From NCBI GenBank assembly GCA_016618385.1, contig JABFOP010000807.1:152216-216215 (forward strand): a stretch of 64,000 nt of DNA. The letters are read 5' to 3'. Within the stretch, counting starts at the first letter, position 1. Every line of letters begins with the position of its first letter. Positions 3,001 through 31,842 of the stretch are shown piece by piece. This DNA is from Nymphon striatum. Its lineage: Eukaryota. Below the pieces are notes generated by a model. It was given only the letters and a program-made list of their open reading frames with translations, was not told the DNA's origin and searched no databases. The position numbers were made by a program, and so were the translations under genes.

Positions 3001-3036
3001 AAAGTAATAAGGTGATATCCGTTCTTGAGAACATGT

Positions 3037-5010: not shown

Positions 5011-5120
5011 TTTGTGTGTGCATTGAACAAATTTTTATCTGTCCCGCTAGCAAGTTTCCCGAAAATGGACATAAATAAATAAACAGACAGAAAAACGAAA
5101 ACAGACATACTCAAGAATCT

Positions 5121-8504: not shown

Positions 8505-8975
8505 GCGGGAAAATCGTATGATATCACAAGTGTGATATCACTGTGAGATCACTGTGATATCATACAATTTTTTTATTTTAATGCTTGGAAATAGATAAAA
8601 AAAAGAAATATTTATGATATCACTGTGATATCATGTCCGTGATATCACAAGTATGATATCACTGTTATATCACTGTGATATCATGTCTGTGATATCACAA
8701 GTATGATATCACAGTGATCTCACAGTGATATCATACAATTTTTGTTTTTTTAATGCTTGGAAATAGAAAAAAAAGGAATATTTATGATATCACTGTGATA
8801 TCACTGTTATGTCACACTTGTGATATCACACACGTGAGATCACTGTAAGGTCACTGTGATATCGTACTTGTGATATCACAGACATGCTATCACTGTGAGA
8901 TCACTGTGATATCATAATTGTGATATCACGCAAGTGAGTTACATGTGATATCACTGTGATATCATGTGAGACTAT
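8505..8975. repeat. Array of the palindromic decamer GTGATATCAC / TGATATCAC(T/A)GTGATATCA, with a higher-order ~170-bp periodicity.
   Basis: More than 40 copies of gtgatatcac, each containing a GATATC palindrome, are interleaved with a repeated spacer ...caatttttttattttaatgcttggaaatagat(a)aaaaaag(g)aaatatttat.... There is no unique-spacer architecture, so this is not a CRISPR array. Confidence 0.85.
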
Positions 8976-9136
8976 TTCTTGACTGGGATGGCTTTTTATT
9001 CCTGCGAACAGTGCATTTTGATAATTTTCAGATGTAATTAAATCTCTATTTCAGTCGAGAGGGGGAGATTTGTTATTGTAATTAAAGCTTTGCCCGAGGG
9101 CTTCATTCAACTGCTACACGGCTAAAAACAGCTATG

Positions 9137-9935
9137 TTTGATACATACAATACATGCCCGTAGCCAGAGGGGTGTTTAGGGTGTCCAGGCACCACCCCAA
9201 AACAGCCAAAGGTCCACTTTGAAAAATTACACTTAAAAAATAATAAATATTTTTAGATTCTCGCTCATTTTTGTGTTTCTGGTCAATTTTAACTTCCTGT
9301 CGTAAGCTTGCTTGCTCAGTTGAGCTGCAGTTGCAATTTTGTCCCTAGACCTTGTCATCATTGCAAATAATAATGTTTATCACATAATAGAGGAGTTATT
9401 CTACCGATCTCAGTGGACATACAAATGATATAAACACATGTGTAAAAACTTGTTATAAAACGATAAACTGCTTAACGGTGAGAGATGTTTTTAATGGGTA
9501 ACCGATTTAAAGTGACAATAATCTTAAACAATGACAAATGGCTCTTAATAGTTTGTTTTCTTAATGATTTTCTACATTAAACCTACTCAGAAGTTTTTAT
9601 TGCATTTGGCTTGACCGGGAGCTGCAATATTGTCATTTAATTTATTTACAAGCATTTTAAAGAGGCGACAGATCGGAAAATGTTTTTAATGATTTGACCT
9701 GGAGCTCTTTGATAAAACCTTACAATTTTCTTTATACACTTGTCCAAACTGAATCTATTTTAAATTAATTTAAATTAATTTTCAAAGCTATCTATTGATT
9801 ATGTGATAAACAGAATACCAAACTTGCCACGTCATATCTTCTATACACTTTTATCTTGAAACCGGTTCTTATATTCGAAAGAGGCACCTCCCCATAAAAA
9901 AATCCTGGCTACGGGCATGCAATACCTCACACATG
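9137..9935. mobile_element. TIR-bounded element (TIR GTTTGATACATAC..ATACATGCCCGTAGCCAG) that contains a copy of the ATCTATTTTAAATTAATTTTCAAAGC repeat family.
   Basis: 9137-9167 is the reverse complement of 9905-9935. The internal 9740-9830 and adjacent 9950-10015 segments match the dispersed short repeat also seen at 4500-4740, 16810-16905, 37640-37700 and 57470-57545. Confidence 0.6.
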
Positions 9936-10144
9936 CATGTATCAAATTGAATCTATTTTAAATTAATTTCCAAAGCTTTCCGTCGGTTAGGTGAGCAGAA
10001 TACGAAATTCGTCCAACGGGCACTCATTCCAAATCTTCTTCAATCATCTGATTGTAGAATAATAGAAGCAATGAAAACACAAACAGTACACTTTAACCCC
10101 GCCTAAATATAAAACTAAATTACCAAGTATGCAGATACGTAAGT

Positions 10145-10757
10145 GGTTAAAGGCATACTCCACTCATTGGGTGTAAAAAAAGAAAAATTCTCAATCTATA
10201 GTCCATATATCAAACATCAAATCCTGATTTTTAAATTTTTTTTCTAGTTCATTTAATATTTTAAAACTAATTTTAAAAGCAACTACGTAGGAGCTGCCAT
10301 TGTTGACAGAAACGCCACAGCCGTGACGTGTAATCCACAAGTCGTGACGTCATAGGCGATAGACGCCGCATACTGGTTACACTAGCATGTTTACCTTTGT
10401 GGAAAGAAGATACTTTAAAAGATTATATGACCATTATTTAATTTCATTCTCGGCTCGAATCGATTAATAACACCAATAATCATTAAAATTATCTTCTCTC
10501 CTCAAATGTATACTTGCTAGCATATCAATGTGCGGCATATATAGTGTATGACATCACGACTTGTAGAATACACGTCACGGCTGTGACGTTTCTGTCCACA
10601 ATGGCAGCTTCAACGTAGTTGATTTTAAAATTCGTTTAAAAATATTAAATAAACTAGATAAAAAATTTTTAAATCAGGATTTATTGTTTGATATATGTAC
10701 TATGGATTGGGAATTTTTTTTTGTTTACACCCAATGAGTGGAGTATGCCTTCAAGAT
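10145..10757. repeat. Foldback element or long hairpin: inverted-repeat arms of ~250 bp (10145-10395 and 10495-10757) with a ~100-bp loop.
   Basis: The reverse complement of 10495-10757 aligns at ~85-90% to 10145-10395 (ggcatactccactcattgggtgtaaa...caactacgt.gagctgccattgt.gacagaaacg.cacagccgtgacgtgta...). Confidence 0.85.
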
Positions 10758-11261
10758 ATCAAATGATATATTTTGCGACAAACGGAAGTGCTTTCAAAAA
10801 AACTTTCAAACTTTCAAAACTTTCAAAAAATAGATATATAATATGTATTTTATGTATAACTACTCAGTTTATTCTACTATATTCTAAAAAACTATAGTGT
10901 CAGAAAAACAACCTTAACCAAATAGTGTATTTGTAGAGTTTGAACAATGCACTGATTTGCTTTTCCACACTCAGATGTATAAGTTTATGCTGTCTGTCAA
11001 TTGATGCATCAATAATCATGATTTGTACTACAGGGTGGCTACTACGTTATGCAACGGAGATAATCGGGGGCGCCGGAACTACCACCTTGCCCTATCTAAA
11101 TTCTGTGAATTTCTACATTTTTCTATTGTTTTGCCCTGAAAACTATCGTGCGGCCCCCGTCGATCTCTCTAGCTTCCGGCGCTACTGGAGATAATATGCT
11201 ACACTGGAGATAATATAACACAATTAAACAAAATAATTTTAGTTTTTAAAATTTTATTAGT

Positions 11262-12402
11262 GTAGTAGTACATTGTCTTGTACACATAATTACAAAACAT
11301 CATTAAAAATGACCGTCTTTTGCTTTCACTGCAGCTTGACGCTTAGGAAATGAGGAGACTGCGGCACAGATGGTCTTTTGATCAATGTCGGCCCATGCTC
11401 GGCAAAGAGACAGCCTTAGGGACTCCAAATTGTGGGTCTGGTTTAGCCACAAGCCTTCGCTTCTAAAATTGACCATGGAGAATAGTCCATAACCTTGAGA
11501 TCTGGCGAGGAAGGACGCCAGGCATCCTTCGCCCAGAAACGCGGAAATTACTCCTTGCACCACGCTTGAGTGTTGTTGGACATGTGGGATGGTACTCAGT
11601 CTTGCTGGAACGTTTGCTTTCGGTCTCCGAAGTGTTTTTTAGCTTCAGTAGCCATAGGTGTCAGAATTGTGGCGATATACGAATCCGTCTTGACTTTTGA
11701 CGCCTTCTGGAATGAAAATTAACGGACTATTTCAAATTTCAGAAATGGCAACCAGACCATCACTTTGAGAGGTCCTTGACGCAGAGTAACCATTTTTTAG
11801 GCATGTCTTTGGAAGAATGCGCGATCACCAAATCATTCTTCTGATTGAATGATGCCTGGACATCAAGAGTTTTTCATCGGAGAAATCAACCTCCATGCCG
11901 GTTCTCATCTCCTTCAGCAGCAAGCGACCTCTGACCAATCTTTTTATCTTTGTGGCTTCGGTAAGGAACTGTTTCTGTTCAAGACGGTAAGAGAACATCT
12001 TCAAATCGTTATGAACCAGGCTTTGCATTGTCCTGACAGATACCTCCTCGTCTTTGGCCATTTTCTTCATTGATCGTCGAGGATTGCGACAAATTTTTTC
12101 TCGTGTCCGCTTTTTGGTTTGTCAGCTAAGGATTGAGTGTCCGTAAAGCATTTGACAGTCCTCCAAACTGTAGAGCGGTCAATTTTCAGTTTTTTTGGAT
12201 ATTTCTCGTGTTAGAAAATCCAGCTTCATGCATATCAATAATTGTTTTACGTTTTTCATGCATTATTATAACCTGAAAAAATGCATTTGAAATGTTAGAA
12301 TATATCTTGAAGTTAACTTAGAAACAAACGCATCAGAATTTAACAAGTGGCGTATGTAGTACATGCACAAATGTTATGTGTACGTCTGTATGACAGACAA
12401 TG
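11262..12402 (-). mobile_element. Decayed Tc1/mariner (Tc1-like) DNA transposon with a transposase pseudogene (frameshifts and stops).
   Basis: Minus-strand translations contain DRSTVWRTVKCFTDTQSLADKPKSGHEKKF (HTH), MRTGMEVDFSDEKLLMSRHHSIRRMIW, and a DDE-domain C-terminus ...KKHFGDRKQTFQQD..WAKDAWRPSSPDLKVMDYSPW...CRAWADIDQKTICAAVSSFPKRQAAVKAKDGHF, typical of Tc1 transposases. The terminal inverted sequences are TGTACACAT...(11262-11285) and ATGTGTAC...GACAATG (12365-12402). At ~1.1 kb it is internally deleted. Confidence 0.75.
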
Positions 12403-13869
12403 GCGGATAGGCAACATTCGTACAATATCAGAGAAGAATCTTGCTCTCAGATTTGTCAATTGGTATGAGTAGTGCTCCTTCTGGTAGATGGGATCTTCAG
12501 GTGTCTATCATGGTTCCCACACTTAAAAAAACATATTTTTCTATGACTAAATCAAACTCTTTGTCCAGGACTTTCAAGCACCTTGATCGTTATTTCCAAG
12601 TCAAACGAAAAAAATTAATGGCAGTTTTAAATTGTCAACAGTATAATAAATGTTATTTGAATTTGAATCTTTGATTCATCATTAGCGACAGAAATATACA
12701 TATGGGAGTCAATTCACACCTGTACTGGCTGTACACAAACATATATGGCTATGGTGCGGACTCGGAAGAGTCCAATTTATTTTTTATTAAACCTTATTTT
12801 ATGAAGGTAGTCCTTAATAACCTTAAAGGGGCCCTCAACAAAATTCAACAATATCCTACTATATAAATTGGTAAAACATATAAGAAAAAAGAAAAATACA
12901 ATATTAAATATATATATATATTGAATACTTTTGAATATTTTATCTTTTAAAAAATCAAGCACTTTCCAGGGTTTTAAGGATCCGTGGAAACCCTGTCTAC
13001 AGCCACATACTTTTATGCAATATGACTCATTCTGAGGTACCTTTACCTTTGCCGAACATACTCCCCTTGCTTTCGCCATTGAAGAAGTCTGAGGTACCTG
13101 ATATTTCACCACAATGTTGCAAGTTTGGAGAGGTCAGCCTTGCAGGCTGAGACAGATATAACCATATAGTAAAAATAAAGAAAAATTTCTTTGCTAAAAA
13201 ACAATTTTGCCGAACACCAGGTTTATGAACACAGATGAAATATTGTATATAAATATTAAGTATGTTAGAATCATTTACCACACCATAAAACACATCAGTG
13301 GTTTGCACAGATTGTTATAAAGAAGATATATAATCTTTGAATGGTACTAAAATTAGACTATTTCAAATATTTCCATTTTTATTAATTTATTTACTGACAA
13401 AAAAATAAAATAAAAATACGAATGAATAACGTGAGATGAATGAGATGAAAAAATTTAATATGATGGGAAGGTAAAATATGATTAAATTGCAAAATTTACA
13501 AAATGTGCTGGAAAAAAGAAATTCTTTTTTAACAGGAAATTATATATACATTAATTAATAACAATAAAAAATGCATATAGATTTTATAATATATTGGCCA
13601 ATTAGAATAAGATTTCTGAATACTTGATTCAACATAACACTTAATTCAAATTTTATGCATTCATATTGGGAAGGGAATAAACTATACCTTTTTTCACCTG
13701 AGGATACCAATCAATAGGTTCATGAGAATATAAGCTCTTATCCTGTTAATCCAAGATAAAAGAAAGAACGGGTTACCTTGGCATGTCCATCCTTGAGATG
13801 CTGCTATTATAAAGGTTTTGGTTTTATTTCTCAGCTCAAGAAATATAAGCTAAATGAAGGGAGTGCTCT

Positions 13870-14110
13870 TTGACAGGAAATTCAGTCCAAAATCCTAGAA
13901 TGTCCTTCCGCTCCTATAATCCCAGTCATGCTAAGCTTTCCGTGATACTGAAGTTTTTCCTTCAAGATATCCTCCTACACGTGCCTGAAATCAAGGGAGT
14001 GTTCTCCAACTGGAAATATGATCCAAAATCCTAGAACATCCCAGCATGCTAAGCTTTCCATGAAATTGAACTTCAGATATCCTCCTTAATGAATTATTTC
14101 TGAAATCCTC
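13870..14110. repeat. Diverged tandem repeat of ~120 bp (..aaatcctagaa.(g/a)tcc...catgctaagctttcc.tga.a.tgaa.tt..).
   Basis: Two adjacent copies at ~13880-13990 and ~14020-14100. Confidence 0.55.
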
Positions 14111-15461
14111 ATGATATATTTCCTGATAAATCCTTAAGAAATCCTTCCAACATCTTAATCCTTTACTCATGATGCTAAGAAAAGATCCTAAGCTCCAAGA
14201 ATGAATGCAAGGCCTCCAAATGTCCAGATTACCTTCATAAAACAAAATAAATGAAAGGTTAATTTGTTTCTTAATAAATGAAAAGAAAGAAAAAAAATTA
14301 AGTTTGTTGTTTTGATAAAAATAACAAAAACAATAAAGTACACAAACAAGGGCTTCTGCTTACAATTATTTTTCGCTTCCATTTCCCATGTTAAATTTAG
14401 CATTTTCTAAATCTATGATGCCAAAAATAGTCTTATTTTGCTAACATTTATGAATACAGCAAAAATTTGCACAGCATTCAAAAATACATATTTATGCCCT
14501 AATCAATTGCAATTTGGCAATCTTAGAGCAATTTTTTACTTTCAAAACAACTTTAAATTCAAAAATTTGATAAAAAACCTGTTACAGACTCAATTAAGTA
14601 AATTGAGAATACGAAGAGTATTGGTCTGGAAATAAAGCATTCAAGAAAAAAATCTACAGGGCCTGAAATAATGAATGATTGAATATATCAAATCAAACTA
14701 TAAACTAGATTCTAGTTCTAAATGGAAATATTTTTTTTATAAAGATGTCAATCTATTTTGAGTCCACGGCAGAAGCATTGCCTGATTCTGAGCCCATAAT
14801 CATTAATTTACACCTTAAGTGAGAGCTTTCTGGCTGCAAAAACAATGTTTTCAGCTCTCAGAACTTGCGATAATTAATAGGACACAATATCTTGACATGC
14901 CCATAAAAATGAAGGATATAAAAATTTCATTTGAAGATAATTGATATAGATAAATGTAATAATATTTATGGTCAATTTTCATGGTTTCAGGCATACCATA
15001 AATTCCTAAGAGAAAGGTGTAGAATCCTGTCCTCTTGGATATCCAGGATGCATGAATACCACACACCTGCTTTTCCACATAATACGTAATTGTACTAAAT
15101 CCAAGACATAAAAATTTGATCCAAGAAACGAGTCCACATCATGCTGATAAAATCAAATCTATGAATACAAGTAATAAAGAGAAAAAAACAGATACAGAAT
15201 ACAGTTAGCAATGGAAAACACTTTTATGTTTGAACTAAAAATGTTAAAGATATCATATCATATTCATATTTCAATACTGACAATCAAAAACATATCAAAA
15301 ATGGAATATGACTAGTGTGAAAAATGAAAGAATGATTGAAACAAATTTTTTTTTTTTCAATAGGAAACTAAAAATTGAAGTAAATTTAAGGAAAAAATAT
15401 ATTGACTAAAATTTCAGGAAAAATGAAATGAAAACATGACCTCTGGATCATGGATGATTGA

Positions 15462-18400
15462 TTAATAGTATGAATCTGAATATGATCGAGAGCGAGATCT
15501 ATACAGACTTCTTGATCTAGACCGTGACTTTTTGAAGGAATATGCTGGTGAACTTCTACTAAATTTACGGGGCGAATAACTTCTACTCCTTGATCTTCCG
15601 CGACTGTAATCATCTTTTACATAAATATGTGAGGTTTCACCCTGAAAAATCAAAAACATCAGTTTTTCATAATTACCTTTAAATTTATCAAATTAATCAA
15701 TATCAATGTATTACATAATGATTTAATAACACACTCAGAAATTAAAAATAAAATGCAGTATAAGCAAGAGAACCAATAATATATTATCTATCAAAATTTC
15801 CTACAATTTTCAGATAAGTTTTATTCTCAATTGGAGGTGAATGGTTATAAAAAAAAAAAACCAATAAACTAATTCGGTCAGGCCAAAGAAGCATAGCTTC
15901 ACTAAGATATTAAACTTGAGTCAAAATTTGGATTTCTCGATTGTCATGATATTTATACTACTTGCAGGGTACAAAACAGACGATCGTCGCATTTAGTCAA
16001 TAAACATCTTTCCGAACAATACTCGGCGATTCAACACTTTTGTGTGTTCCCTAAACTTTTAGGCCTCTCGAACTGCATGCCAACTCAATTTTTTTTTACA
16101 TTTAATTACACAGAATCAAATTAATCAGTATAATTATCATAAAACCTAACTTAACTTAACCTACCGTATTTTCCGCACTATCAACCGCACAGGATTAACA
16201 CCCGCACCCCCACAAGGGTCATACAAAATCCACACAATCTCCGCACCGTCTTATCACCCGCACCTCTCCAGTGAGAAATTTCCCGTCTGCTGTACACTGT
16301 TATAGTGTATCTCCACCACGCACATCGGAATGATAGTCATATATCCGAAATACAGTGATAATCCTGAGTTTAATCGTCACGATCCTCATCAGATTCGAAT
16401 CCATCGAAATCCTCGCCTTCCGTATCGCCATGGAACAGATCGTAATACAGCTGGGCCAACAGACAGTGCATGGCCGCTGGGAGGTGAACAAACCACCTCG
16501 TTCGTTGACAATGATTGGCTTTAGGGGTGATATTACGGAGAATGAAAACGTAGAAATTACAATATACAACCGTAAGACTACTTCCCTTCAATTTGGATAT
16601 CAAAATGATATGGATATAAACAGGAAATTTGGTAATTTCTTTACGCCATCTTCGATAGTGCCGTCATCATCATATCAGTCTACTGTCGATGCTGCGATTG
16701 CTTGTGTATCGGTGTATGCATGGGTTGAGTGCAATGCAGGGTGTCTTTGCGAGTAGCGACCGTATATATTTTTTTATTTCTTTCGGAGTTGGCTGTGTAT
16801 AATTGATCCCAGTTGGAGCAATTTAAAAATTATTTTAAATTATTTTCAAAGCTATCTGTCATTATATGAAACTAGTTACATATCCTCTATTTATCACATA
16901 ATAGATGTTATCAAGTGCATTGTGCAAATAATTGTGATATATTCCACGCGTTGAACACCATGCAATAACATCAGATTGGAATAACTTAATAATTGTGTTA
17001 TTCCACTAATAATAATAAAAAAATTTCAAATATTCCTCCACGCACAGTAAACAGATGCCATTGTTGTCTTGCATACTAAATTCAAGGTAATTTTTTGTTA
17101 CATATTATATATGGACATTATCAATTTCTACCAATATCCATATTGTGATGGCTTGCAGAAATACAAACAATGTTGGATTGTTGCATATATCTCATATCAA
17201 ATGGGAACTCATTTTATTATAAACATTTGGTTGTCGTAAGTTTGAAATCTTCTGTTTTTCGTTTTGTCCTACACATGCTAAATGTTTGTTAAATATTAGG
17301 ACCATTAGAAAGCACAGAAAAGAAAGTAGAGGTAGCTCTGAGACAAATGAAGAGCGGAAAGGCATTAGGACCAACAGACAAGCGATCTATTAAAGGCAGC
17401 AGGAAAGAAAGGAGAGAGAGAGGGGATACCAGTAGACTGAAAGAAGTACAACCATACCAATTTATAAGGGCAAAAAAGATGCTATAGATTGTGGCGCTAC
17501 TATTCATCGTAGTAATGGATAGTGTATTTGCAGATGATTTAGTATTGACAGCAGAATCACAGCAAGAAGTACTGGAAACGTTCGAGAGATGGAGATAAGG
17601 AATAGAAACAAGAGGACTGTGTAAACTTGGATAAAACAAAGGTAACGGTAACTGAAAGCGATATTAATTAATATGCAAATTTCTCATTTATGCAATAACA
17701 TAGTAAACAATACCCAAGATTATGACATATTAATAAAATGAAATCACACATACAATTGATGAGATAGAAAAAATAAATTCAATAAATGATACCTCATGGG
17801 AACGGAACTTGGATTCATCCAACTTTTTCACAGCATATTTCATATCTTCATACCTTAAAAATTCAACTACTCCTGTGCCATCTTTAAACACATCAGCATA
17901 GCATACATCACCAGCTTCTCTCATGTGGTCTTTTAAATCTTGCCAGCTACCAGTTGAAGGTAAGTTAGAGACTTGTACACGATACTGAGAACGCCTTGCA
18001 GGAGGCCCACGTCCCCTCCCTCGAGGTGCATGAGATCTATGACCACCACCACCTCCTCCTCCTCCACCACCACCTCCTCCTCCACCACTGCCGCCACCAC
18101 CACCACCTCCGCCACTACCACCACCACCGCCTTCTCCTCTGCTTCCTCGTGGAAACTCGACTCTCAGTTTATAACCATCATAATCATACCCATCTCTTGC
18201 ATGTACAGCATCATCAGCATCTCTGAAAAATAATGTTTCAGATATAGAATCCTTTATAGTTGAAAATATTCTTAAAAACAGAATTGTAGCCTGAAATAAT
18301 GCCACAATCGACGTCACAATGAACCATGACTGCTTCCTAACAGGCATTTTTTCAGGCTTCTTACTGGCATTGATTATTAAAAAATTAAAATAACAATGTG

Positions 18401-21400
18401 GCAGAAGACAAATAACAAACAAGTTTATTCAGTCAGCCAAAACGAAATAAAAAAGTCAGGTGCACAGTAATTCATAATATAAAAAGCGAACTAACTACTA
18501 GAAACCCAAGTATAAAACAAATTAACAGAGGATTTTCCTCTACGATTGGAATGTTCTTTAAATGGAAAGTCTAGTGGTCATTACAAAACTGGCCAGGGTT
18601 TCCGCTGCCAGTCGCCAACGGCGAAAAAATAAAAAAAATGGCGATAAAATGATTTGCCGAAAACAATCGTTTTTTATAGGTTTGTTTCTTGGCGAAATTG
18701 AGGCCGTTATTAGGAACATAAATTAAAAAATTATTATTCACAGAGGTTAGTACAGTATTACGGTAAACATTATATTTGATTTCGGTTCTTATTTTGTGTA
18801 ATTATGAGTAAAATGTGTTGTGATGTCCTAACGTTGAATTTTCGTACCTCCAACTGAGCGCTCGGACGAGCCACATTTTCACCGTCACGATTACGGCATG
18901 GAAAATTACCCAATCCGGGTAAACAGGCCTCAACGAAATGTGGTCGGTACCGGCGAAATATCTACTACCTTTTTTATACACAAAATTTCTCTTTACTAAA
19001 CATCTCGATCTGGCCTAGGGAGCAATATAACACACAGCCAAAAACACAGTACGCAGTACTTTCACGCATGTATTTTAGGCCGTATGCGAGATCGCGTTTG
19101 AAAATTCCGCAACCGAAAAGCATATAAAAAGTTTTAAAATGCGTTATTTGAAGTATAAGAGTATTTCCATTTTATCTTTTACAGGGTTCGTACGTGTCCT
19201 TAAATTTCCTGAAATTTCATTTTAGTCCTGAAATGTCCTGAAAAATGTCAAAGTTAGTCCTGGAATACCCCCCTCCCAAACCCTCCCCGCACGTAAAAAA
19301 TATTTGGGATAATTGTGGCGAAAAAAATATAAGGTCCAGTGGAAACCCTGACTGGCTGTGTGTTGTTATTTTTGAATTGAGTTTAGCTTTTCAAAACATG
19401 ACCACACATTAAATTCGAGTTTGATTTCTTTAAACTATACCACCAAGCTAATCTCTCGACTCTCAGCAGATTAGGTGTCAACTGCTGGGCATGTGGGATT
19501 AATGACACCATATAATGTCCGAAGCATCGTATCCATGACATTGACACATTAAACATAAGCACAAAAATGTGGCTGTGCACCAATCACCAAAATCCAACTC
19601 CGGTCGTCCAAAGGGCGACTGGACACATAGCTGGCTAACCTTATGCTCCAGTAGCGATTGCCTGCGCTAGCTACGCCACGTGTAACCCAAAATTACAGAT
19701 TTTTTCAGACGGAGGTGTTCTTGTGTTTAAACATTCATTTTCATAATTTCGAGAAGTAAAGCCTGGAAGTTGAAGAAAGAGCACGAATTTGGGGTGAGGG
19801 AAACTTTCAAGATAGTTATAATCATCATTTATATGTTCACTGCTTGATAGTTGAACAAATGAGTGCTGGGGGAGGAGTCATCAATGGTGGCGTGATTGGT
19901 TGTTACAGTGTTACAGACGCTGGGTAGGTGGGTGGGTAACAATTTTGGTGAAGAAAGATAGTGTACGTAATTTTTTCATTTTCATTCACTCGAGCGCTTT
20001 GTATTGCGGAATGTGTAATTATTTAACTGAATGTAGAATCATCATGAAATTTTGTCAGAATAGAGACAAGATATAGTTGTATATGTTGATTTACCTTTAA
20101 AGACCGTTGGTTGAGTAGAAACTTTCACTACGGTTGATAGTAAATGACATAAATTTTCGGATCGATCACAGACACACTAAACTATGTCCGAAATAAAAAA
20201 TTTTAAAACTAGGTTACTGGGGGTTAACTCGATCGACTCTAGTGACCGCCAATTCCAGGAAAATCTAGCACTGAGAGCCAGTGAGAAGCGAGAATTAGGG
20301 AGTCCCCGCTCAACCAGATTTCATTCCATGGAACATGGATTAAGACACGATTTGAACATTTACCATCATACCTATTTATTGTAGGAAAGCAGCGTTTCAA
20401 AATGTATACATTTTTTACTTTTTAAAATGATCTCGTTTCGCAACCAGTGGTAGGCACCGGTGAATCCGTCAGATGGCGCTGCAAAATATGTAACACTCTG
20501 TAACACGGAGATACTATTGCCCTACGTCAGCAAAGGGCTGCCAAACATGAATTTGAAAACATGTTTTTTTAAAATGGCCATTTCATCGTTTCTCATGTTA
20601 AGATACACATTGTATGGGTCACAACAAATATTTGGGATATCCCGTGATCATTTGACCGCCTTCATTTTTTAACTTTTGTCTGCTAAATTTATAAAATGGC
20701 GATCGGAAGATAACCCAAATTTCACCGTTATTAAAATAGCTCACGCATCTAAACGGAGCCATGAGCAACATTAAAACATTGCTTTTAATAATTTTGAGAA
20801 ACTATTCTATCATTTAATCTTCGCGAAATTATGATACCTGTAGCACTTTAGGAGAAATAAAGCCTTGAAGTAGAGGCTTTTTCGTTCGTGTTGCATCAAA
20901 TTCAATGTCGTTAACATGGCATCTGGGGAGGGAGAAGTCAATAGAGACGTAATTATGACGTCACCACAATGTGTTCGGGCAATAAGTAACATGTAAAGTA
21001 TAGAAATTCGAGTGTTACAAAAATTGGTACATTTTTGACTCTAAAAACTGCTCTCGTTTCCAAATCAGTGGTCCAATTTGACCCATGTAAAAAGCATATT
21101 CACCCATTTTCCATAGGCTTTCCAGTGTGGCTGAAAAAAATCCTGTAAGAAAATATTTATTTTTTTATGCCGGTGCCTACCAGTGGTCCAATTTCCAATT
21201 TGGCTCATTTTTATAGGCTTTCCAGTCTGCCTGAAACGGATCAAGTGGTGACAGATTTTTTTTTTTTTTTTTATACCGGTGCATCCTCCTCGGCCAAAAG
21301 AAAATTCAAGTGAGAATCAATCTTCAAAATTAAATAGATTAAAATTATTTGGGCCGTACCCCTAACCGCACTATTACGAGAGCAAAGGTCGTAACTGCAT

Positions 21401-21637
21401 ACAGATTGATTATAATGAAGAAAAACCATTGAAATAATATTAATTAATAGGCAATAAACATAACAAAGACCTTGGATCTTCAAATTCAACAAAAGCAAAT
21501 GGAGGCCCACGGCGATTCTTCAAATCAATGAAAACGATTTTCCCATATTTATAGAACAGATCTTCAATATCCTTGCTTCGAATATCAGGAGGCAAATTAC
21601 CAACGTATACTCTACATTCACTGTTTCTATTTGACAT
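15462..21637 (-). CDS. SRSF1: SR splicing factor, SRSF1/SRSF9 (ASF/SF2) ortholog. CDS = join(complement(21471..21637), complement(17793..18222), complement(15462..15641)), 258 aa.
   Basis: Exon 1 translates [56 protein letters not shown] (RRM1), with donor AAG|GTCTTT. Exon 2 follows acceptor TTTTCAG and reads [29 protein letters not shown], a ~40-residue Gly/Ser hinge, then [66 protein letters not shown] (RRM2), with donor GAG|GTATCA. Exon 3 follows acceptor TTTTCAG and reads [59 protein letters not shown] (RS domain). Splice phases are consistent (2/1, then 0/0). The match to human SRSF1 is near-collinear. Confidence 0.85.
17290..17650 (+). mobile_element. Non-LTR retrotransposon (LINE) reverse-transcriptase fragment, internally deleted, in SRSF intron 2.
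   Basis: The + strand translation contains [20 protein letters not shown] (RT N-terminal motif) and [22 protein letters not shown] (YxDD box region), joined out of frame. Confidence 0.6.
18040..18135 (-). repeat. (GGN)n coding microsatellite that encodes the expanded glycine hinge of SRSF.
   Basis: ccaccacc/tcctcc runs on the + strand read as Gly codons on the - strand ([30 protein letters not shown]). Confidence 0.9.
18594..19350. mobile_element. MITE-like TIR element, family 'CAGGGTTTCC' (TIR CAGGGTTTCCRCTG), with a 6-bp direct repeat ACTGGC at both flanks.
   Basis: The left end is cagggtttccgctgccagt. The right end is ccagtggaaaccctg. The flanks are ...aACTGGC|cagggtttcc...ggaaaccctg|ACTGGCtgtg. 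It sits in SRSF intron 1. Confidence 0.75.
21050..21262. repeat. Tandem ~110-bp repeat x2 (cagtggtccaattt...ataggctttccagt.tg.ctgaaa...) in SRSF intron 1.
   Basis: Two adjacent diverged copies, each followed by a T-rich tract and tgccggtgc/taccggtgc. Confidence 0.7.
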
Positions 21638-21960
21638 CTTAAAAAGGATATTAAATTAAGAATTCTAAATGCGTTGAACGAAGAGATTGAACAAGCACGC
21701 TTTTCCGAAAACGTAATCTCGCACCAGGGCACCAAGAGAATTAAAAATTTTAAAGTTAAAATTATTTTGATATCGTATCATCCTTATTATATTAATATAA
21801 TTTAATTTTATATAAAATGAATAACATTACATTAACTTATGGGACATAATATTTTTAGATATAAAAATAAAAGCGGGAAAAATTTGCACATTGCATTCTG
21901 GGCTGATAGAAGAACCTGCCAGAAAATAGATCATATCATCCAATCATCATTCGAGTAGAA
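21638..21960. promoter_or_regulatory. Putative bidirectional promoter region between the divergent SRSF (-) and DYNLL (+) genes.
   Basis: The SRSF start codon at 21637 (minus) and the candidate DYNLL exon 1 (plus) are separated by ~300 bp. Human SRSF9 and DYNLL1 are arranged head-to-head (from memory). Confidence 0.35.
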
Positions 21961-22059
21961 TAGGGCCAAGAACTCGTGTTGAAAAAAGTTGTAGAAGCGA
22001 CAGCTCATAACATTGTTGTTTGAAGTGACTAAATTTGATTTGATTTGATTAATCTTGTG
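21960..22059 (+). other. Candidate non-coding first exon of DYNLL (5'UTR), with splice donor GTG|GTAAGT at 22060.
   Basis: A strong consensus donor (GTAAGT at 22060-22065) lies ~3.7 kb upstream of the acceptor TTTTTAG (25732-25737) that directly precedes the DYNLL ATG. It sits ~320 bp from the SRSF start codon on the opposite strand. No expression data are available, so this is inferred only. Confidence 0.35.
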
Positions 22060-22609
22060 GTAAGTTTAGTAAATTAATGTAATCTTTCATTAGAAATTTA
22101 GGCGTTTAGAATCCATTATATTTAAAGATTTTACACTGGAGTCACTTAATTTTTTTCGCACTATTCAATTCATGAATGATTTTTCTACATCAACTCCAGC
22201 CAGAGTCGAGAAGTCTTTATTACAATGAGTTAATCCTGTAATGAATATAATATGGGTTTTCTGTTGAATTTTTTCTCAATAGACACTCCATATTTAGAGT
22301 ATTTATTTAAAGATATAATTTTTATATCAATTATTAATTCGGATTGGTTCGTATCTAAATCGGTACCGGCTGTCAGAAATTTGAAATGCGGAGCCTGAAG
22401 AGGCTGCGGGTACGACTGGTATTTGGCGTTTAGAATCGAAGTTATACTCAATTAAGACTTTTCTTATTTCTTGATTGAATTAACCTCCTGATAATGCCCA
22501 TATTGTCATAATGATACTCCCGTAGAATGAAAGAGGAGAGTATGTTGCCATTGTTGGTGTTTGAGTGGTTAGATCATTAGAAATTAATTCCAATTCAATT
22601 AAGGTAGTG

Positions 22610-22750
22610 TCTATTTGACCGGTAGCCGGCCACATTTTGTTTAAAATTGTTTACCCGGAGTCAATCCTGATTGGGTAATTTTCCATGACGTCATTGTGAA
22701 TATGGCTCGTCCGAGCGCTCAGCTGGAGGTACAGAATTTAACGTTAGCAC
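22610..22750. repeat. Inverted partial copy of the internal segment of the 18594-19350 element, related to 1270-1330.
   Basis: ggctcgtccgagcgctcagctggaggtac...ttttccatgacgtcattg is the reverse complement of gtacctccaactgagcgctcggacgagcc...ggcatggaaaattaccc at 18835-18965. Confidence 0.7.
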
Positions 22751-24139
22751 ATACATTTTAAGCAGTGTCTTTTTTGCCGGAATCGGGCACATTTCGCTCT
22801 AAAGTTATTTTATCCGATATCATGTCTGAATGGCTAAAACTGTACAGAGATTTGAAAACGTCTCTTGATCAGCCTGCGGAATAGCTAGGTTAAGTTAATA
22901 ATAATTATAATGGATGGAAGATAATAATAACTGTGTATTATAACAGAACAAACTTTACCTAACCTATTCCGATCTAGGCTGATCCAAGCCTGGGGATTTC
23001 AGATTTTATCGGTAACAGTTTTTCAGTTCCGTACTTTCTCTTCATGGGAACCCAAGGGAAATAAAATTTCGATTCCGTGCTTAAAGTTCATAGGAACCGT
23101 TTTTTTTTTTTTTTTTTTTTTCCCAGTCATATTCAGCTGTTTTAGGGCTATTCCAGAAAATTGTACATGGGGGACAGAAGGTACTTTTTTCATACCCCAA
23201 CAACCCGTTTAATTTTTTACCATGCGTCATATAAAATTTTATAAAAATAAATAAACTGATAGGAAACGAAATTTCTTCTGGTAATTATGCGTACTAGATC
23301 CGAGTCGGCGCTGCTTATCCTGAAACCAGAAATCAATTGCTGGATCTGCATTAAAGTTTTCAATACTGGTTTTTTCACTTTTACGGAGACATACTTTCAG
23401 CATTGGCCTGCCTAAGCTGCTTCTGTGATCATTAGCCAAAATTAATATTCAAATCTTCCATATTCTATCATTTTCAAGATTGACGAAAAAATTTTTGTCG
23501 TACCGATACGATTTACGGCATAATTATCAAATTATTCCATCATTTTTAAACAAAAGCCTAGATTTTGATTTGATGTTTTTTTTTCAAATAGTTTGTAGGC
23601 AATATTTAAACTCGCTGCCTCTACCATGCTGTTTATTTTCTTGAATGTAATGAGGGAAAAGTTAAAATAGCATGGATACCCAGGCTAGTAGCGTAATTGC
23701 AATTCATGAAAGTCAAAACTGCTATCTCACATCGTAAAAATAATGTGTGACCCCAAACAATTTTTTTCTGCAGCGCTATTTTTTTTATGAACCGTTTATA
23801 AATCCTTATTTCGGGCCTTGTGTATGCATCGGTTTCATGAAAGAGCTGTGTAGTATTTTCTTAATCTAATACAGTTGCATCAAAGACAAAAATACAATGA
23901 CATGTTATTATTCATTTGCTGATTAAAATGAATAGAAAGTGTATTTGATGGTGAATCTGCATGAAAGATTTCGGGAAAATTGTATATAATGAATACATAC
24001 CTGAAATTTGAAAAAAGTTGTCATAGAATACAGGTTCAAGGGTGAAAGTATTCCGGAACACGTCGGATTCTCCGGTTTTTACGGGTCTTGAAGGGTCGTT
24101 TTTCCAAATCGTGTAAATCCGTTGAGATTTTTTTTCAGA

Positions 24140-24410
24140 GTGGGGGGGAGGTATGACCCAACTCCTCAGATTTTCGATAGTTAATTTCTCAAAAGATACT
24201 GGCAGACTGGTTTTAGAGAGAAAATACCCCGTCCCTCGGATAGGACGTTAATGGAGTTCCAGTGTAAAGGAGAGTCATACCCTCTATACGTTAAAGAACA
24301 CACTTCACTATTCGGATAAAGAGTAGGGTAATCCTGGTGAAGTGTAGCACCTGCGTAGAACACGCAGAACACCTATTCTTGACTTTTAAAGGACCCGTAC
24401 GAACCCTGAA
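24140..24410 (+). mobile_element. Fragment of a SINE-like repeat that shares its 3' tail with the 39428-39820 SINE.
   Basis: gtgaagtgtagcacctgcgtagaacacgcagaacacctattcttgacttttaaaggacccgtacgaaccctg matches gtgtagcacctgcgaggaacgctattcttgactgcgg. Confidence 0.4.
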
Positions 24411-24859
24411 TTCCTACAAAATATGAATTACTATGGATTTTAAGATTATTTATAAAATGAAAACCTTTATTGCACCAAACTCACAAGGGTTTTTTTTTTT
24501 TTGAGTTTAGTGCAACAAAGGTTTTTAAAAAAATTAAAGAAGAAATAAAAAAAAAATCATAAAAACACTCCAGTTACATGAGTGAAGGTTTTTCAGGTTT
24601 TTCAAAATTTTCAACTCTCACCCATGCAGGTTAAATACTTCGGAAATAAAATTAATTTGCTTTAATTTTGTCATTTCATGTCATGTTTTAGCTATGAATT
24701 ATGACAACCCTAATAGATATTTAATGGGCAGCATAAATAATTGTGGGTGTCACATTTGAAGGAGTGCTTATGCACCACACCTTAAGTGAATAAAATCTCA
24801 TTGCCATTTATAGAAGCAATTGATTATTACTTTTTTAGTTATAATAATATCCATGTGTG

Positions 24860-25015
24860 AATAGTTTCAACTTTATTAAATATTGATAATAATAATATTT
24901 AAATTCTTTGGCCTAACTAAGCTATAGATATCTGAAATATTGAGATTTCAAATATCTATAGCCTAGTTAGGCCAAAAAATTTAAATATCATTATTTAATA
25001 AAATTTAATATTTTT
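24860..25015. repeat. Near-perfect palindrome (hairpin MITE-like), with core ggcctaactaagctatagatatctgaaatattgagatttcaaatatctatagcctagttaggcc.
   Basis: The self-complementary sequence is centred at ~24940, and the flanks extend the inverted symmetry. Confidence 0.8.
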
Positions 25016-25754
25016 CTGAATATACTTCTAAATGTAATTTATCAAAACACACTTTTATTCATGTTTAATATCTGTTAAAATATAAAAAAAAAAATTTAAT
25101 TTCATAATTTTATTTTCATTCAGAACCCCCTATTAATGAATACACAAGAACGCATCTTTGTTCATTCCATTCCATTCAGAAATTATGTCTCTTTTTTTCA
25201 TTTTTTTTTTTTTTTGCCAAAATTATCACCCTACCCCCATAACATAACACTTAACCATACCCCCTAAAAATTACGTAACAAATGTATGAACCCCCCCCCC
25301 CCCCCCATTTTTCCTGGCCAAAGCACTCTAAAAAATACCAAACTTGCAAAATTTGGCCTTTAAATAGGCCAATCTGACAATGCTGATGGTGTTATGTAAC
25401 ACTTGGCCAGATACACACCCCCCTAGTAACACTAGGATACATTTTCAACACATATTAAAGTGTTTTTTTTTTTTAATTTTCTTCAATTTCATTGAAATAG
25501 ATAGTTAATTCTGGGACAGGGACACCTTGTATAGAAGAAAATGAAATGATCTTATATTAACGTACATTTAAATATATTTAAATGATAATCAGAAGGCATG
25601 CATGGATGCACTAAATTAACATCTCCAAAAGTATGTGTAAGGGTTCAAAGAAAACTACAGTCTTCTTTGTATTTATTTATGTATTATGCTGATAATGATA
25701 ACCATGATAATTTATGTGATTTTTATCATTTTTAGGCAATCAAAATTTGCAGCT

Positions 25755-26024
25755 ATGACAGACCGTAAAGCTGTTATCAAGAATGCTGACATGACAGAAG
25801 AAATGCAGCAAGATGCTGTTGACTGTGCTACTCACGCATTAGAAAAGTTCAACATCGAAAAAGATATTGCAGCATATGTCAAAAAAGAATTTGACAGGAA
25901 ATACAACCCAACTTGGCATTGCATTGTTGGCCGTAATTTTGGTAGTTATGTTACTCATGAAACAAAGCATTTCATATATTTCTACATCGGACAAGTGGCA
26001 ATCCTCTTATTCAAGTCTGGATAA
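25755..26024 (+). CDS. DYNLL: Dynein light chain LC8-type (DYNLL1/2 ortholog). Single coding exon, 89 aa.
   Basis: The translation [89 protein letters not shown] is ~90% identical to human DYNLL1 over its full length. An acceptor TTTTTAG lies at 25732-25737, just upstream of the ATG, implying a 5'UTR intron. Confidence 0.95.
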
Positions 26025-26264
26025 TTTAGATACGATGATCAAATAATACTAAGTATGATAGCTGTAAATTCTGTTCACCGCTAAAGGCGCTTAAAAGTCA
26101 AATTTAGATGTATTGTTCTGCCAATTGTTTCATCCAATCTATTAATATTAATATGATATATTATTTCATATAAGTTTGACTTTTTTTTTTCTTCAGTGTA
26201 CATATTGATAGCACTAACTTATTTATTTAAGTTTGAAGGGGAGGCCAATGAGATGGGGGATTCC

Positions 26265-26692
26265 AGCGTTATGTGTGCGACATCCAGACACTATTTTCAC
26301 CCTTTTCACTTAAAGAACTTTTCTTCGACAGTTAGATTTTCTTTCTTTCACGTAATTCTTCAATACATAACTATAGCCTGATATTACATTTCATTTTTTT
26401 TCTAAATCTACAGGAAAAGTTAACGTTAACATTCAGTCAGATGGAAACGGCCTCCAGCTTGCCATAAACCCATGTGAGTTTAGTGCAATAAGGTTTAAAA
26501 AAAAAAAAAGTTAACGTTACGTGTGTGCGCGCACTTCTCCTGTAGATTTAGAAAAAAAATGAAATGCAAACTGGTAACATCCGGCTATGGTCATGTATCG
26601 AAGTATTACGTCAAAGAAAGAAAATCTAACTGTATAAGGAAAGTCTTTCAGTGAAAAGGGCGAAAATAGTGTCTGGATGTCGCACACGTATT
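26265..26692. repeat. Foldback inverted repeat (arms 26265-26425 and 26512-26692, ~85% identical; ~85-bp loop) 240 bp downstream of the DYNLL stop codon.
   Basis: The reverse complement of 26512-26692 aligns to 26265-26425 (gtgtgcgacatccagacactattttc.cccttttcact.aaaga...ttagattttctttctttcacgtaat.cttc.atacat...ttctaaatctacagga.aag). Confidence 0.8.
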
Positions 26693-27033
26693 GCTAGAAT
26701 CACCCAGAAGCACTTTTGGAAGAGAGCCATATGATTTTGGCTATGAATGCTATTTTGATTCAGAAGTCATGCAACAAATATTCCATAATAATTGTGAAAA
26801 TTTCATTCCTTTACTCATCATCTCTAATTTGTTTTCAATATTTTTTTTTTTTTTTTTTGATAGAGAAAGAAAATTTTAATTAAATCATCCAGGATTTTAG
26901 GTTGTTTTATAAGTTTACAATGTATGTTCATATAATAAAGTGTTGAGGAAAAACTATTCAGAAATAATTTTCTTTTTGTCGAGAGACGAAAGTTGGATGC
27001 TTTGGCTTTTATATATTCAAAATATATATATAC

Positions 27034-27433
27034 ACGTGCGGAACCTTTTATCCGAAATCCTTGGGACTTGGGACTTTTCGGATTTTGGAATGAAAATTTT
27101 TTTAAGTGAAAAATACAATAAATATATATGTTATTTTAAAGTTTTTTGGTTAATTACGCATACACAAAAGTATTTTATGACCCTGCTCGGTGCTGTTTTT
27201 TGTAGTCCGAGAGGCTTGGTTATTCGCTTTCTGTATACTGTAGTAAGTTACTTAAATTCTTTCAATTTACTAAAGTCACACAACATAAACGCCTTAATTA
27301 TTTTCTGGTTAACTATTCCTGGCACAACATGTGGATTGTTTCCGGTCAAGTTTGGCGCCAAACGCGAATTTTTATTATAAATTTTGGAAAAAAAAGTCTG
27401 GTTTTAGGAATTCCGGATAAAAGGTTCCGCATC
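27034..27433. mobile_element. MITE (~400 bp) with ~25-bp TIRs GCGGAACCTTTTATCCGRAAT.CC.
   Basis: acgtgcggaaccttttatccgaaatcc (27034-27060) is the reverse complement of ggaattccggataaaaggttccgcatctg (27405-27433). The interior is AT-rich and non-coding. It lies in the DYNLL-COQ5 3' intergenic region. Confidence 0.75.
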
Positions 27434-27578
27434 TGTAGTTGTAGTAATGTGATGATATTTTTTTTTACTTTTTGTTTTGTTTGTAAAAATTTTGACAGTA
27501 AATGTAAAACAAAATATGATTGTAACTAGTTTTCTTTTATTGTCTTCATTATTTTCATATATTTTACAATAAATCTAT

Positions 27579-31842
<4,264 letters not shown>

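Follow-up and report, generated by a model that had tools for sequence, protein, structure and literature searches.

A putative distant non-coding first exon of DYNLL beside SRSF1 in Nymphon striatum, within an anciently conserved head-to-head gene arrangement

The question raised by this locus is whether transcription of DYNLL (LC8) begins beside a neighboring SRSF gene, several kilobases away from its own coding exon. In the window, by which we mean the whole stretch of 64,000 nucleotides of Nymphon striatum DNA analyzed here, an SRSF1-like gene (minus strand, ATG at 21637) and DYNLL (plus strand, coding sequence 25755-26024) are divergently transcribed, with their start codons 4.1 kb apart. 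A promoter counts as bidirectional when the transcription start sites (TSSs) of its divergent genes are separated by less than 1 kb (PMC2713978). The original prediction placed both genes on one compact divergent promoter by giving DYNLL a non-coding first exon close to SRSF, spliced over a 3.7-kb intron to an intronless coding exon. The features discussed below are collected in Table 1.

The predicted SRSF start codon was confirmed by a reverse-complement translation that runs up to the donor after 21471. The product, encoded by three coding exons, is 258 aa long and contains two RRM domains, and its top database matches are SRSF1 proteins. Its first exon shares 86% identity and the codon position of its intron with exon 1 of Haliotis SRSF1, and its second exon is matched by tblastn to SRSF1 exons of Haliotis and Pecten. 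The spliced protein has no exact match in the collection searched, its nearest homologue being 76% identical. Upstream of the ATG, the SRSF TSS is presumed to lie within an ATG-free leader zone, the length of which is reached by 6% of minus-strand ATG gaps and is thus weak evidence.

As predicted, DYNLL is encoded by a single uninterrupted plus-strand exon, from the ATG at 25755 to the stop codon at 26022-26024. The 89-aa product matches Pfam Dynein_light (PF01221) over its full length (E=4e-43), and its identity to animal DYNLL1/2 reaches 93% among the best matches, a value also held by the nearest relative in the homologue search. Neither this protein nor its extended forms of 112 aa and 97 aa had an exact match in the collection. 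When metagenomes were scanned twice for DYNLL 26- and 29-mers specific to this species, a single contig (L020) was returned; it comes from another species, begins inside the coding sequence, and is 81% identical to the window in the coding sequence only. Across the collections searched, neither transcripts or ESTs nor proteins of the species turned up. Vertebrate DYNLL coding sequences hold an intron, whereas that of the window has none. A retrocopy origin was ruled out, because synteny is conserved and the coding sequence is also intronless in Ridgeia, Patella, and Haliotis; the gene therefore represents the ancestral locus.

A splice acceptor, TTTTTAG, is indeed present upstream of the coding exon, but its correct position is 25729-25735 rather than 25732-25737, and the predicted junction 22059^25738 accordingly becomes 22059^25736, a shift of 2-3 nt in the coordinates. 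Nor is it the only candidate, as had been proposed: a second AG (tttgcag/ct, where the slash marks the exon boundary) at 25751-25752 is separated from the ATG by 2 nt, although it follows a poorer pyrimidine tract than do the six acceptors that homology fixes in this genome. The five further lineages read, which comprise annelids, gastropods, and a crinoid, all have an acceptor 1-22 nt before the DYNLL ATG (Haliotis 4, Patella 1, Lottia 1, Ridgeia 22, and Anneissia 11 nt, compared with 19 nt in the window).

This shared position bears on whether the gene has a 5′UTR intron at all. If it had none, the TSS would lie within ~40 nt of the ATG (25714-25754) and TTTTTAG would be fortuitous. The stretch 25715-25754 is free of ATGs, and A+T-rich, TATA-like sequence is plentiful upstream; however, the recurrence of the acceptor in five other lineages, a restart of annelid sequence conservation ~30 nt before the ATG that is consistent with an acceptor, and the lack of any promoter-like conservation or CpG signal seen there make an intronless 5′UTR highly improbable.

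Table 1. Features of the SRSF1-DYNLL-COQ5 neighborhood in window coordinates (a slash marks an exon boundary)
Feature	Position	Strand	Remarks
SRSF1-like exon 3	15462-15641	-	RS-rich tail and stop; from frame translation and peptide mapping; acceptor tttttcag/ggtgaa
SRSF1-like exon 2	17793-18222	-	End of RRM1, long Gly run, RRM2, ...KFRSHE
SRSF1-like exon 1, coding part	21471-21637	-	ATG 21637-21635; donor AAG/GTCTTT after 21471
SRSF 5′ leader zone, inferred	21638-21778	-	141 nt without ATG; TSS presumed within
A+T-rich core between genes	21740-21880	.	85% A+T
Palindrome TTTTATATAAAA	21806-21817		TATA-like on both strands
TATA-like string TATAAAAATAAAAG	21860-21873	+	
CCAAT (NF-Y-type) box CATCCAATCA	21937-21946	+	Unique in window; 120 nt from CCAAT to last exon-1 base
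Putative non-coding DYNLL exon 1	21950-22059	+	3′ end fixed at 22059
Splice donor GTG/GTAAGT	22057-22065	+	Last exon base 22059
Putative DYNLL intron 1	22060-25735	+	3,676 nt; CpG-poor over last 1.3 kb
Splice acceptor TTTTTAG/G	25729-25735	+	Exon 2 starts at 25736
DYNLL exon 2	25736-26024	+	19-nt leader and 89-codon CDS (25755-26024 including stop)
COQ5 last coding exon	27582-27680	-	Tail-to-tail with DYNLL; further COQ5 exons 29937-30436

At the other end of the putative intron, the plus-strand donor was confirmed in its context (cttgtg/gtaagt). Of all plus-strand sites that separate the two start codons, it is the top-scoring donor and the sole GTAAGT. Across both strands of the window (128 kb), GTAAGT occurs 27 times and 28 donors score at least as high, so that a stretch of 4.1 kb should contain ~0.9 sites of this quality, and chance could account for the donor taken by itself. 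It is also stronger than five donors whose positions in this genome are established by homology (GTCTTT, GTATCA, GTAAAA, GTATAG, and GTGAGA). Since these real donors are weak, ranking donors by consensus is unreliable in this genome. A poor-scoring donor nearer the coding sequence might accordingly be used instead.

Start codons are unevenly placed around this site. A plus-strand run without ATG extends from 21840 to 22059 (220 nt) and stops at the donor, the next ATG lying 18 nt into the putative intron; together with the 19-nt leader of exon 2, up to 239 nt would be free of upstream ATGs. Gaps of this length make up 0.9% of the ATG gaps in the window, where the mean spacing is 50 nt, and the 300 nt upstream of the acceptor hold 12 ATGs. 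The beginning of the run at 21840 is the only bound on the 5′ end of the candidate exon. The putative intron contains few repeats common to the rest of the window, as judged by self-BLAST, and Rfam and tRNA scans of the window gave no match and hence no intron-hosted snoRNA.

Upstream of the donor, on the sense strand, lies a proximal box of the form CCAAT(C/G/A)(A/G), at 120 nt and hence inside the 120-145 nt range set for such a box. The combination of CCAATCA with a donor scoring at least 7 located 100-150 nt downstream occurs once on both strands of the window (128 kb), and a looser triple (donor scoring at least 5, ATG-free run of at least 140 nt, and CCAAT 100-150 nt upstream) occurs three times. 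A second intact CCAAT box exactly 22 nt further upstream is absent from the window; a degenerate CCAGA lies at 21919, 21 nt upstream.

The composition of the sequence between the two predicted start regions had been proposed as a check. Neither a CpG island nor a GC-rich, TATA-less promoter of the Sp1/ETS type was found; GC content is 26-32%, and the A+T-rich core carries TATA-like strings, which chance would produce at such a composition and for which any function would be putative. The observed-to-expected CpG ratio is nevertheless 1.74 at 21600-21899, compared with 0.73 across the window and 0-0.6 at 24400-25700, a pattern in keeping with a promoter free of methylation at the SRSF end and with a transcribed gene body before the coding exon. 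With these elements, a DYNLL TSS is plausible at ~21890, if driven by a TATA element, or at ~21990-22020, if driven by the CCAAT box.

Comparison with annelid and gastropod loci provides a reference for this arrangement. Siboglinid annelids (Ridgeia piscesae, L004; Lamellibrachia satsuma, L010; and the related contigs L011-L017) share with the window the order and orientation of COQ5, DYNLL, and SRSF1, the intronless coding sequence, and a CCAAT promoter with an inferred exon 1 close to SRSF1, within ~0.4-0.56 kb of its ATG. Their donor is GTGAGT or GTAAGT, and their acceptor lies 22 nt before the DYNLL ATG. They differ in having two CCAAT boxes 22 nt apart, where the window has one intact box, and an intron of 0.8 kb instead of 3.7 kb, and their exon 1 is not alignable to that of the window beyond the CCAAT box. 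In the gastropods Haliotis cracherodii (L001) and Patella caerulea (L007), DYNLL and SRSF1 are likewise head-to-head with ATGs 4.1-4.9 kb apart, similar to the 4.1 kb of the window, the coding sequence is intronless, the acceptor lies 1-4 nt before the ATG, and, in Patella, COQ5 is found on the DYNLL side. In these gastropods, however, the double CCAAT box and the inferred exon 1 are near the DYNLL coding exon, at 0.45-0.9 kb, with 3.5-3.9 kb separating them from SRSF1, so the long spacer is intergenic there, whereas in the window it would be intronic.

On the DYNLL-sense strand of Ridgeia, Patella, and Haliotis, a CCAAT box is followed after 129-144 nt by a strong donor, at exon-1 positions that are themselves predicted, compared with the 120 nt separating the two in the window; the ATG-free run before the donor measures 147-168 nt in these loci and 220 nt in the window. 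The predicted junctions are 9438^8645 in Ridgeia (L004), 6351^5900 in Patella (L007), and 5964^5066 in Haliotis (L001). We define the lophotrochozoan DYNLL promoter module as CCAAT-N17-CCAAT, ~130 nt without ATG, and then a donor. The double box was identified in all seven SRSF-linked annelid loci and in Haliotis, Patella, and Lottia, and in the fetched loci CCAAT-N17-CCAAT occurs on the DYNLL-sense strand only, upstream of the DYNLL coding sequence. When the seven annelid loci are compared, intergenic conservation is highest from the distal CCAAT up to the donor, at 81-88% in the three more diverged comparisons, and falls to 36-58% directly after the donor.

At the sequence level, an nhmmer profile of the annelid promoter and exon-1 block gave no match at the window candidate and weak ones in gastropods (E 2-12, on the right strand). 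Local alignments of the window block with the orthologous blocks of Ridgeia, the annelid contig L014, Patella, and Haliotis were not significant (z below 1), and the best alignments to all four anchor at the window CCAAT box. The Mytilus DYNLL locus has no neighbor within 10 kb, the Lottia locus carries DYNLL in three copies but lacks an SRSF gene within 7 kb, and short contigs with annelid DYNLL protein were absent from the 10 places listed.

The gastropod arrangement raises the alternative that the first exon of DYNLL lies elsewhere in the 22.1-25.7 kb interval, as gastropods appear to have it, in which case the donor at 22059 would be a chance site or part of an unstable transcript that the SRSF promoter gives off upstream in antisense. 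Candidate exons would end at TGT/GTAAGG (25636, with a 99-nt intron), GAG/GTATGA (24150), or CGG/GTACGA (22409), and both the weakness of real donors in this genome and the proximity of the Haliotis and Patella modules to the coding exon speak in their favor. At 25369 there is a CCAAT box (taggCCAATctg) that precedes the DYNLL ATG by 386 nt, but no donor scoring at least 5 is found 100-150 nt past it. Similarly, the 24150 donor is preceded by a 162-nt ATG-free run, but the region 24.0-24.3 kb lacks a CCAAT box and is ATG-poor on both strands. A CpG-richer patch (22300-22449) holds an inverted CCAAT (22343) together with the 22409 donor, yet the exon ending there would contain an upstream ATG (22386), as would the exon ending at 25636 (25582-25633), and the 1.3 kb before the coding exon are GC-poor with a CpG ratio of 0-0.6. 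The three candidates were set aside for upstream ATGs, for a CCAAT missing at the right spacing, or for CpG-poor surroundings, and we regard a first exon elsewhere in the interval as unlikely.

The first exon ending at 22059 could also be one of two. The only related statement found in the literature searched is that the main human DYNLL1 isoform has a promoter, described as likely bidirectional, in common with the lncRNA NRAV (PMC6101671) rather than with SRSF9, and the term "main isoform" implies that there are further ones. In Haliotis rubra, the RefSeq DYNLL "isoform X4", along with N-terminally extended mollusc models, suggests alternative 5′ exons. A tissue-dependent pair of first exons or promoters, one proximal to SRSF (22059) and one nearer the coding exon, would accommodate these observations, but the window carries no mark of a second promoter, and we consider this option more doubtful still than a single first exon elsewhere.

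Taken together, donor rank, the run free of upstream ATGs, CCAAT spacing, and acceptor position make the non-coding exon 1 with its 3.7-kb intron the best-supported reading of the sequence, and we consider it probable that DYNLL has a first exon ending at 22059, with divergent starts within ~0.4 kb. In the proposed mechanism, DYNLL transcription would most likely start at the CCAAT-box promoter, a short non-coding exon would be transcribed up to 22059, and the 3,676-nt intron would be spliced out to join that exon to 25736, 19 nt before the ATG. Two divergent housekeeping genes would then begin within the interval 21.47-22.07 kb, with the SRSF TSS expected within 21640-21780. The gene models, the donor, acceptor, and CCAAT sequences, the ATG-free run, and the order and orientation of the genes are read directly from the DNA; donor use, the TSSs, and NF-Y binding are predictions, and the two genes may be co-regulated.

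If exon 1 ends at 22059, the 422 nt that separate this position from 21637 would contain both TSSs; the start regions, less than ~420 bp apart and flanking the A+T-rich core, would constitute a bidirectional promoter by position. Should DYNLL start elsewhere, the two TSSs would no longer lie within the 1-kb limit. One compact divergent promoter would thus apply to the window as a juxtaposition; as a conserved requirement, tight sharing does not hold, because the gastropod module lies far from SRSF1, which makes close promoter sharing lineage-specific. With this first exon, the window would resemble NF-Y/CCAAT bidirectional promoters such as that of PRR11-SKA2 (PMC5372550), in which divergent coding genes separated by less than 1 kb flank a CCAAT box; those promoters, however, have a CpG island and a tested NF-Y dependence, whereas the window has an A+T-rich core, no CpG island, and a putative NF-Y site. 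The literature searched contained no report of a bidirectional SRSF9/DYNLL1 promoter in human, which had been invoked as a precedent.

A non-coding first exon is usual for vertebrate DYNLL, and the human SRSF9 and DYNLL1 gene extents presumably abut head-to-head through a long DYNLL1 isoform. The neighborhood itself recurs in other lineages. The order SRSF(-), DYNLL(+), COQ5(-) is identical in Ridgeia and Patella, and mammals have the same SRSF-DYNLL-COQ5 order within COX6A1-(TRIAP1)-GATC-SRSF9-DYNLL1-COQ5 (12q24.31; paralogous SRSF1/DYNLL2 at 17q22). For instance, the pig gene order is COX6A1, GATC, SRSF9, DYNLL1, COQ5 (PMC10734178), and human SRSF1 and DYNLL2 fall within one 976-kb deletion at 17q22 (PMC13106306). 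The 12q24.31 block includes GATC and TRIAP1, whereas neither was detected beside the window SRSF: GatC and TRIAP1 exons from five loci and an approximate human TRIAP1 query gave no tblastn match in 1-15400, a search that short divergent exons could escape.

The locus is therefore an ordinary, anciently conserved gene arrangement and not a new kind of element. For annotation, it offers a testable DYNLL model, in which exon 1 ends at 22059 and a 3,676-nt intron separates it from an exon 2 that begins at 25736, and it provides a clean invertebrate example of the SRSF1/9-DYNLL-COQ5 neighborhood also found in mammals. Our findings bear modestly on the persistence of ancient head-to-head pairs; they would not surprise a specialist and open no long-standing question. 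The comparison of annelids and gastropods indicates that the genes retain their order and orientation but not the spacing of their promoters. Tentatively, Lophotrochozoa may share a conserved, discrete DYNLL promoter module that moves as a unit, lying by SRSF1 in annelids and in this genome or by the coding exon in gastropods, while the head-to-head COQ5-DYNLL-SRSF(-GATC-TRIAP1) order is kept from spiralians to mammals. If this is so, a constraint other than a shared promoter would keep the ancient linkage in place, for example a chromatin domain common to the genes or regulatory elements that interdigitate.

The window is A+T-rich animal DNA (34% GC; CpG observed/expected 0.73). Neither its DYNLL nor its SRSF protein had an exact match, and in a collection of 5.8 billion sequences the nearest proteins were 93% identical for DYNLL and 76% for SRSF1, with the SRSF matches scattered across molluscs, chelicerates and crustaceans. 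Translation of the ORF confirmed the SRSF ATG on the minus strand, and the DYNLL coding exon proved intronless, as the original prediction had stated. The SRSF1-like product comprises two RRMs (Pfam RRM_1, E=5e-34), a long glycine run and an RS tail, and its best matches carry the name SRSF1. The glycine linker between the RRMs in exon 2 (17973-18127, minus strand) is unusually long and pure, with ~30 Gly and two Ser; it is shorter in the aligned Haliotis and Pecten orthologues, and the end of RRM1, the linker and RRM2 occupy one exon in the window, whereas an intron divides them in Haliotis. A candidate 87-nt intron in the SRSF 5'UTR (21638-21725, minus strand) would run from CTG^GTGCGA, which resembles a donor and has 21725 as its last exon base, to an acceptor-like cctttttaag abutting the ATG; no acceptor directly precedes the SRSF1 ATG in Haliotis or Ridgeia.

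Coordinates of gene models and promoter elements in the window and at the compared loci
Feature	Location	Strand	Remark
SRSF1-like exon 1, coding part	21637-21471	-	ORF start 21637, donor after 21471
SRSF1-like exons 2 and 3	18222-17793, 15641-15462	-	complete 258-aa protein
DYNLL/LC8 CDS	25755-26024	+	uninterrupted 89 codons, Pfam Dynein_light E=4e-43
Palindromic TTTTATATAAAA	21806-21817		in A+T core
TATAAAAATAAAAG	21860-21873		in A+T core
Double CCAAT box, Haliotis cracherodii (L001)	6129-6099	-	
Double CCAAT box, Ridgeia piscesae (L004)	9589-9563	-	
Double CCAAT box, Patella caerulea (L007)	6501-6475	-	
Double CCAAT boxes, siboglinid annelids (L010-L014, L016, L017)			
Double CCAAT box, Lottia gigantea (L021)	9463	+	

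Among SRSF1 or DYNLL loci taken from annotated genomes, the two genes stand head-to-head in Haliotis cracherodii, Patella caerulea and Ridgeia piscesae, with 4.9, 4.1 and 1.4 kb, respectively, between their ATGs. COQ5 lies tail-to-tail with DYNLL in Ridgeia and Patella, whose order and orientation are those of the SRSF(-)/DYNLL(+)/COQ5(-) layout of the window (15462-30436). GatC, or GatC with a TRIAP1-like gene, follows beyond SRSF1 in Haliotis and Patella; neither GatC nor TRIAP1 was detected in the window. The crinoid Anneissia possesses DYNLL, SRSF1 and, beyond SRSF1, GatC and a TRIAP1-like gene, but with DYNLL inverted, and DYNLL is absent within 10 kb upstream of SRSF1 in Pecten, Liolophura, Glandiceps and Parasteatoda. 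The mammalian SRSF9-DYNLL1-COQ5 block has its order in common with the window; the pig order COX6A1, GATC, SRSF9, DYNLL1, COQ5 (PMC10734178) and the inclusion of SRSF1 and DYNLL2 in one 17q22 deletion (PMC13106306) indicate that this block is ancient. Because the DYNLL coding sequence lacks introns in every invertebrate locus compared, the window gene represents the ancestral copy, and a retrocopy origin was ruled out, the invertebrate orthologues being equally intronless. Lottia gigantea carries three intronless DYNLL copies in 6.6 kb (L021, 7001-13603), and in all three an acceptor, tatttttacag^a, stands one nt upstream of the ATG.

Other elements were observed nearby. A Ran GTPase gene (42513-46629, minus strand) with at least three coding exons was recognised by eye from translations; human RAN is on distal 12q, as is the SRSF9-DYNLL1 neighbourhood (12q24.31). 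Between DYNLL and COQ5, an imperfect inverted repeat (26254-26706) starts 230 nt past the DYNLL stop, with arms of ~165 nt (86-95% complementary) and a loop of ~112 nt; it resembles a MITE or hairpin element and possibly lies inside the DYNLL 3'UTR. Two fragments, at 28179-28316 (plus strand, within a COQ5 intron) and 58095-58226 (minus strand), share by eye a similar retrotransposon ORF2-tail-like peptide, ...WAGHL(S/T)RRT(G/D)DRWTTKST....

The original prediction joined DYNLL to a distant non-coding first exon. Its donor, GTG^GTAAGT, is correctly placed (last exon base 22059), whereas the TTTTTAG acceptor, given as 25732-25737, lies at 25729-25735, so that the predicted junction becomes 22059^25736. 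Nor is this acceptor the only one: a second AG (tttgcag^ct) stands 2 nt before the ATG, with an A-rich tract that differs from six acceptors of the same genome fixed by homology. Under a generic metazoan donor matrix, the 22059 donor is equalled or surpassed by 28 sites in 128 kb (~0.9 expected per 4.1 kb); taken alone, it is not beyond chance. Between the SRSF and DYNLL ATGs, no plus-strand donor scores higher and no other GTAAGT occurs. The site is also far nearer consensus than five real donors here (GTCTTT, GTATCA, GTAAAA, GTATAG and GTGAGA), and consensus ranking therefore has limited power in this genome. Haliotis, Patella, Lottia, Ridgeia and Anneissia all have an acceptor at 1-22 nt upstream of the DYNLL ATG, which supports the one in the window, and this conservation makes a short unspliced leader very improbable. 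The 300 nt leading up to the acceptor hold 12 ATGs, which would limit a leader running unspliced into the coding exon to about 40 nt at most.

The region before the donor is distinctive. From 21840 to 22059 the plus strand has 220 nt without ATG, the first one following 18 nt inside the putative intron, and, counting a 19-nt exon-2 leader, a spliced 5'UTR of as much as 239 nt could be free of upstream ATGs; gaps this long make up just 0.9% of those between successive ATGs in the window (mean spacing 50 nt). A CCAAT box, CATCCAATCA (21937-21946), lies 120 nt from the end of the putative exon, and the combination of CCAATCA with a donor of score 7 or above 100-150 nt downstream is unique in the window when both strands are counted. 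Relaxing the thresholds to a donor score of at least 5, an ATG-free run of at least 140 and any CCAAT brings the number of such triples in the window to three. Of the two chance matches, one (donor 21309) arises from a local tandem duplication in SRSF intron 1 (21066-21266, period about 100-115 nt), in which, for example, CAGTGGTCCAATTT and TATAGGCTTTCCAGT.TG.CTGAAA each occur twice. This evidence for exon 1 is suggestive, short of proof. A first exon elsewhere inside the 3.7-kb interval is unlikely, as the candidate sites carry upstream ATGs and no promoter signature, and the use of alternative first exons is less likely still. The putative intron also contains a 16-nt direct repeat, TT(A/T)GGCGTTTAGAATC, at 22098-22113 and 22422-22437, 324 nt apart, which may be the target-site duplication of an insertion; the segment between includes a GC- and CpG-richer patch (22300-22449), in which lie the second-best donor (22409) and a CCAAT in inverse orientation.

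A look-up with the Ridgeia DYNLL protein yielded ten additional annelid-like loci in genomic DNA, and six of these can be aligned to Ridgeia ahead of the coding sequence. In all alignments, homology stops 17-44 nt past a G^GTGAGT or GTAAGT donor, and in the five more diverged loci it restarts only 14-32 nt before the ATG. Intergenic conservation is highest from a pair of CCAAT boxes spaced by 22 nt through to the donor, with 81-88% identity against 36-58% just past it in the three more diverged comparisons. This pattern very probably puts 0.36-0.56 kb between the SRSF1 ATG and the annelid DYNLL exon 1 with its promoter. Used as a profile, the annelid block gives weak matches (E 2-12) in Haliotis and Patella to a double CCAAT box of the same kind, again in DYNLL sense; it lies 1.05 and 0.6 kb upstream of the coding start and 3.9 and 3.5 kb from SRSF1. 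Strong donors follow CCAAT by 129-144 nt in annelids, Haliotis and Patella and by 160 nt in Lottia, and ATG-free runs precede those of Haliotis and Patella. In all fetched loci, CCAAT-N17-CCAAT, with its exact 17-nt spacer and 22-nt period, occurs only in DYNLL sense upstream of a DYNLL CDS; in Lottia it lies upstream of the middle copy only. We found no description of this module in the literature searched. A scan of the window found no CCAAT-N17-CCAAT; unlike annelids and gastropods, it retains the proximal CCAAT box alone. Each orthologue has its best local alignment with the flanks of this box, at scores that are not significant.

The donor, ATG-free run, CCAAT spacing and conserved acceptor make the predicted DYNLL 5'UTR exon and ~3.7-kb intron probably right. 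DYNLL transcription would start within 21840-22059, from a promoter with its CCAAT box at 21940; exon 1 would end at 22059, and a 3,676-nt intron would lead to exon 2 at 25736. SRSF would probably start at 21640-21780 on the minus strand, where 141 nt lack ATG, which is weak evidence (6% of gaps are that long). The core between the two start regions is 85% A+T, and any use of its TTTTATATAAAA and TATAAAAATAAAAG strings is putative, since chance alone predicts such strings at this composition. The CpG ratio (observed/expected) is 1.74 over 21600-21899 and 0-0.6 across the 1.3 kb that precede the DYNLL coding exon, as would suit a promoter near SRSF and a transcribed gene body at the other end; the suggested check for CpG/GC and Sp1/ETS signals revealed neither a CpG island nor a GC-rich promoter of the Sp1/ETS type seen in mammals.

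We take the human SRSF9 and DYNLL1 gene extents to abut via a long DYNLL1 isoform; the shared promoter reported for this pair, according to the original prediction, was not found in the literature searched. For the main DYNLL1 isoform, the promoter described as likely bidirectional is one shared with the lncRNA NRAV (PMC6101671), and head-to-head pairs can be driven by CCAAT/NF-Y boxes (PMC5372550). By position, the window pair would fall within the distance of under 1 kb that usually defines bidirectional promoters (PMC2713978), with functional sharing putative. The proposed compact divergent promoter would stand in this positional respect, but close sharing is not general, as the gastropod loci show a predicted DYNLL promoter module working several kb from SRSF1. 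Overall, the two genes form an ordinary head-to-head pair of ancient synteny, with a putative 5'UTR intron.
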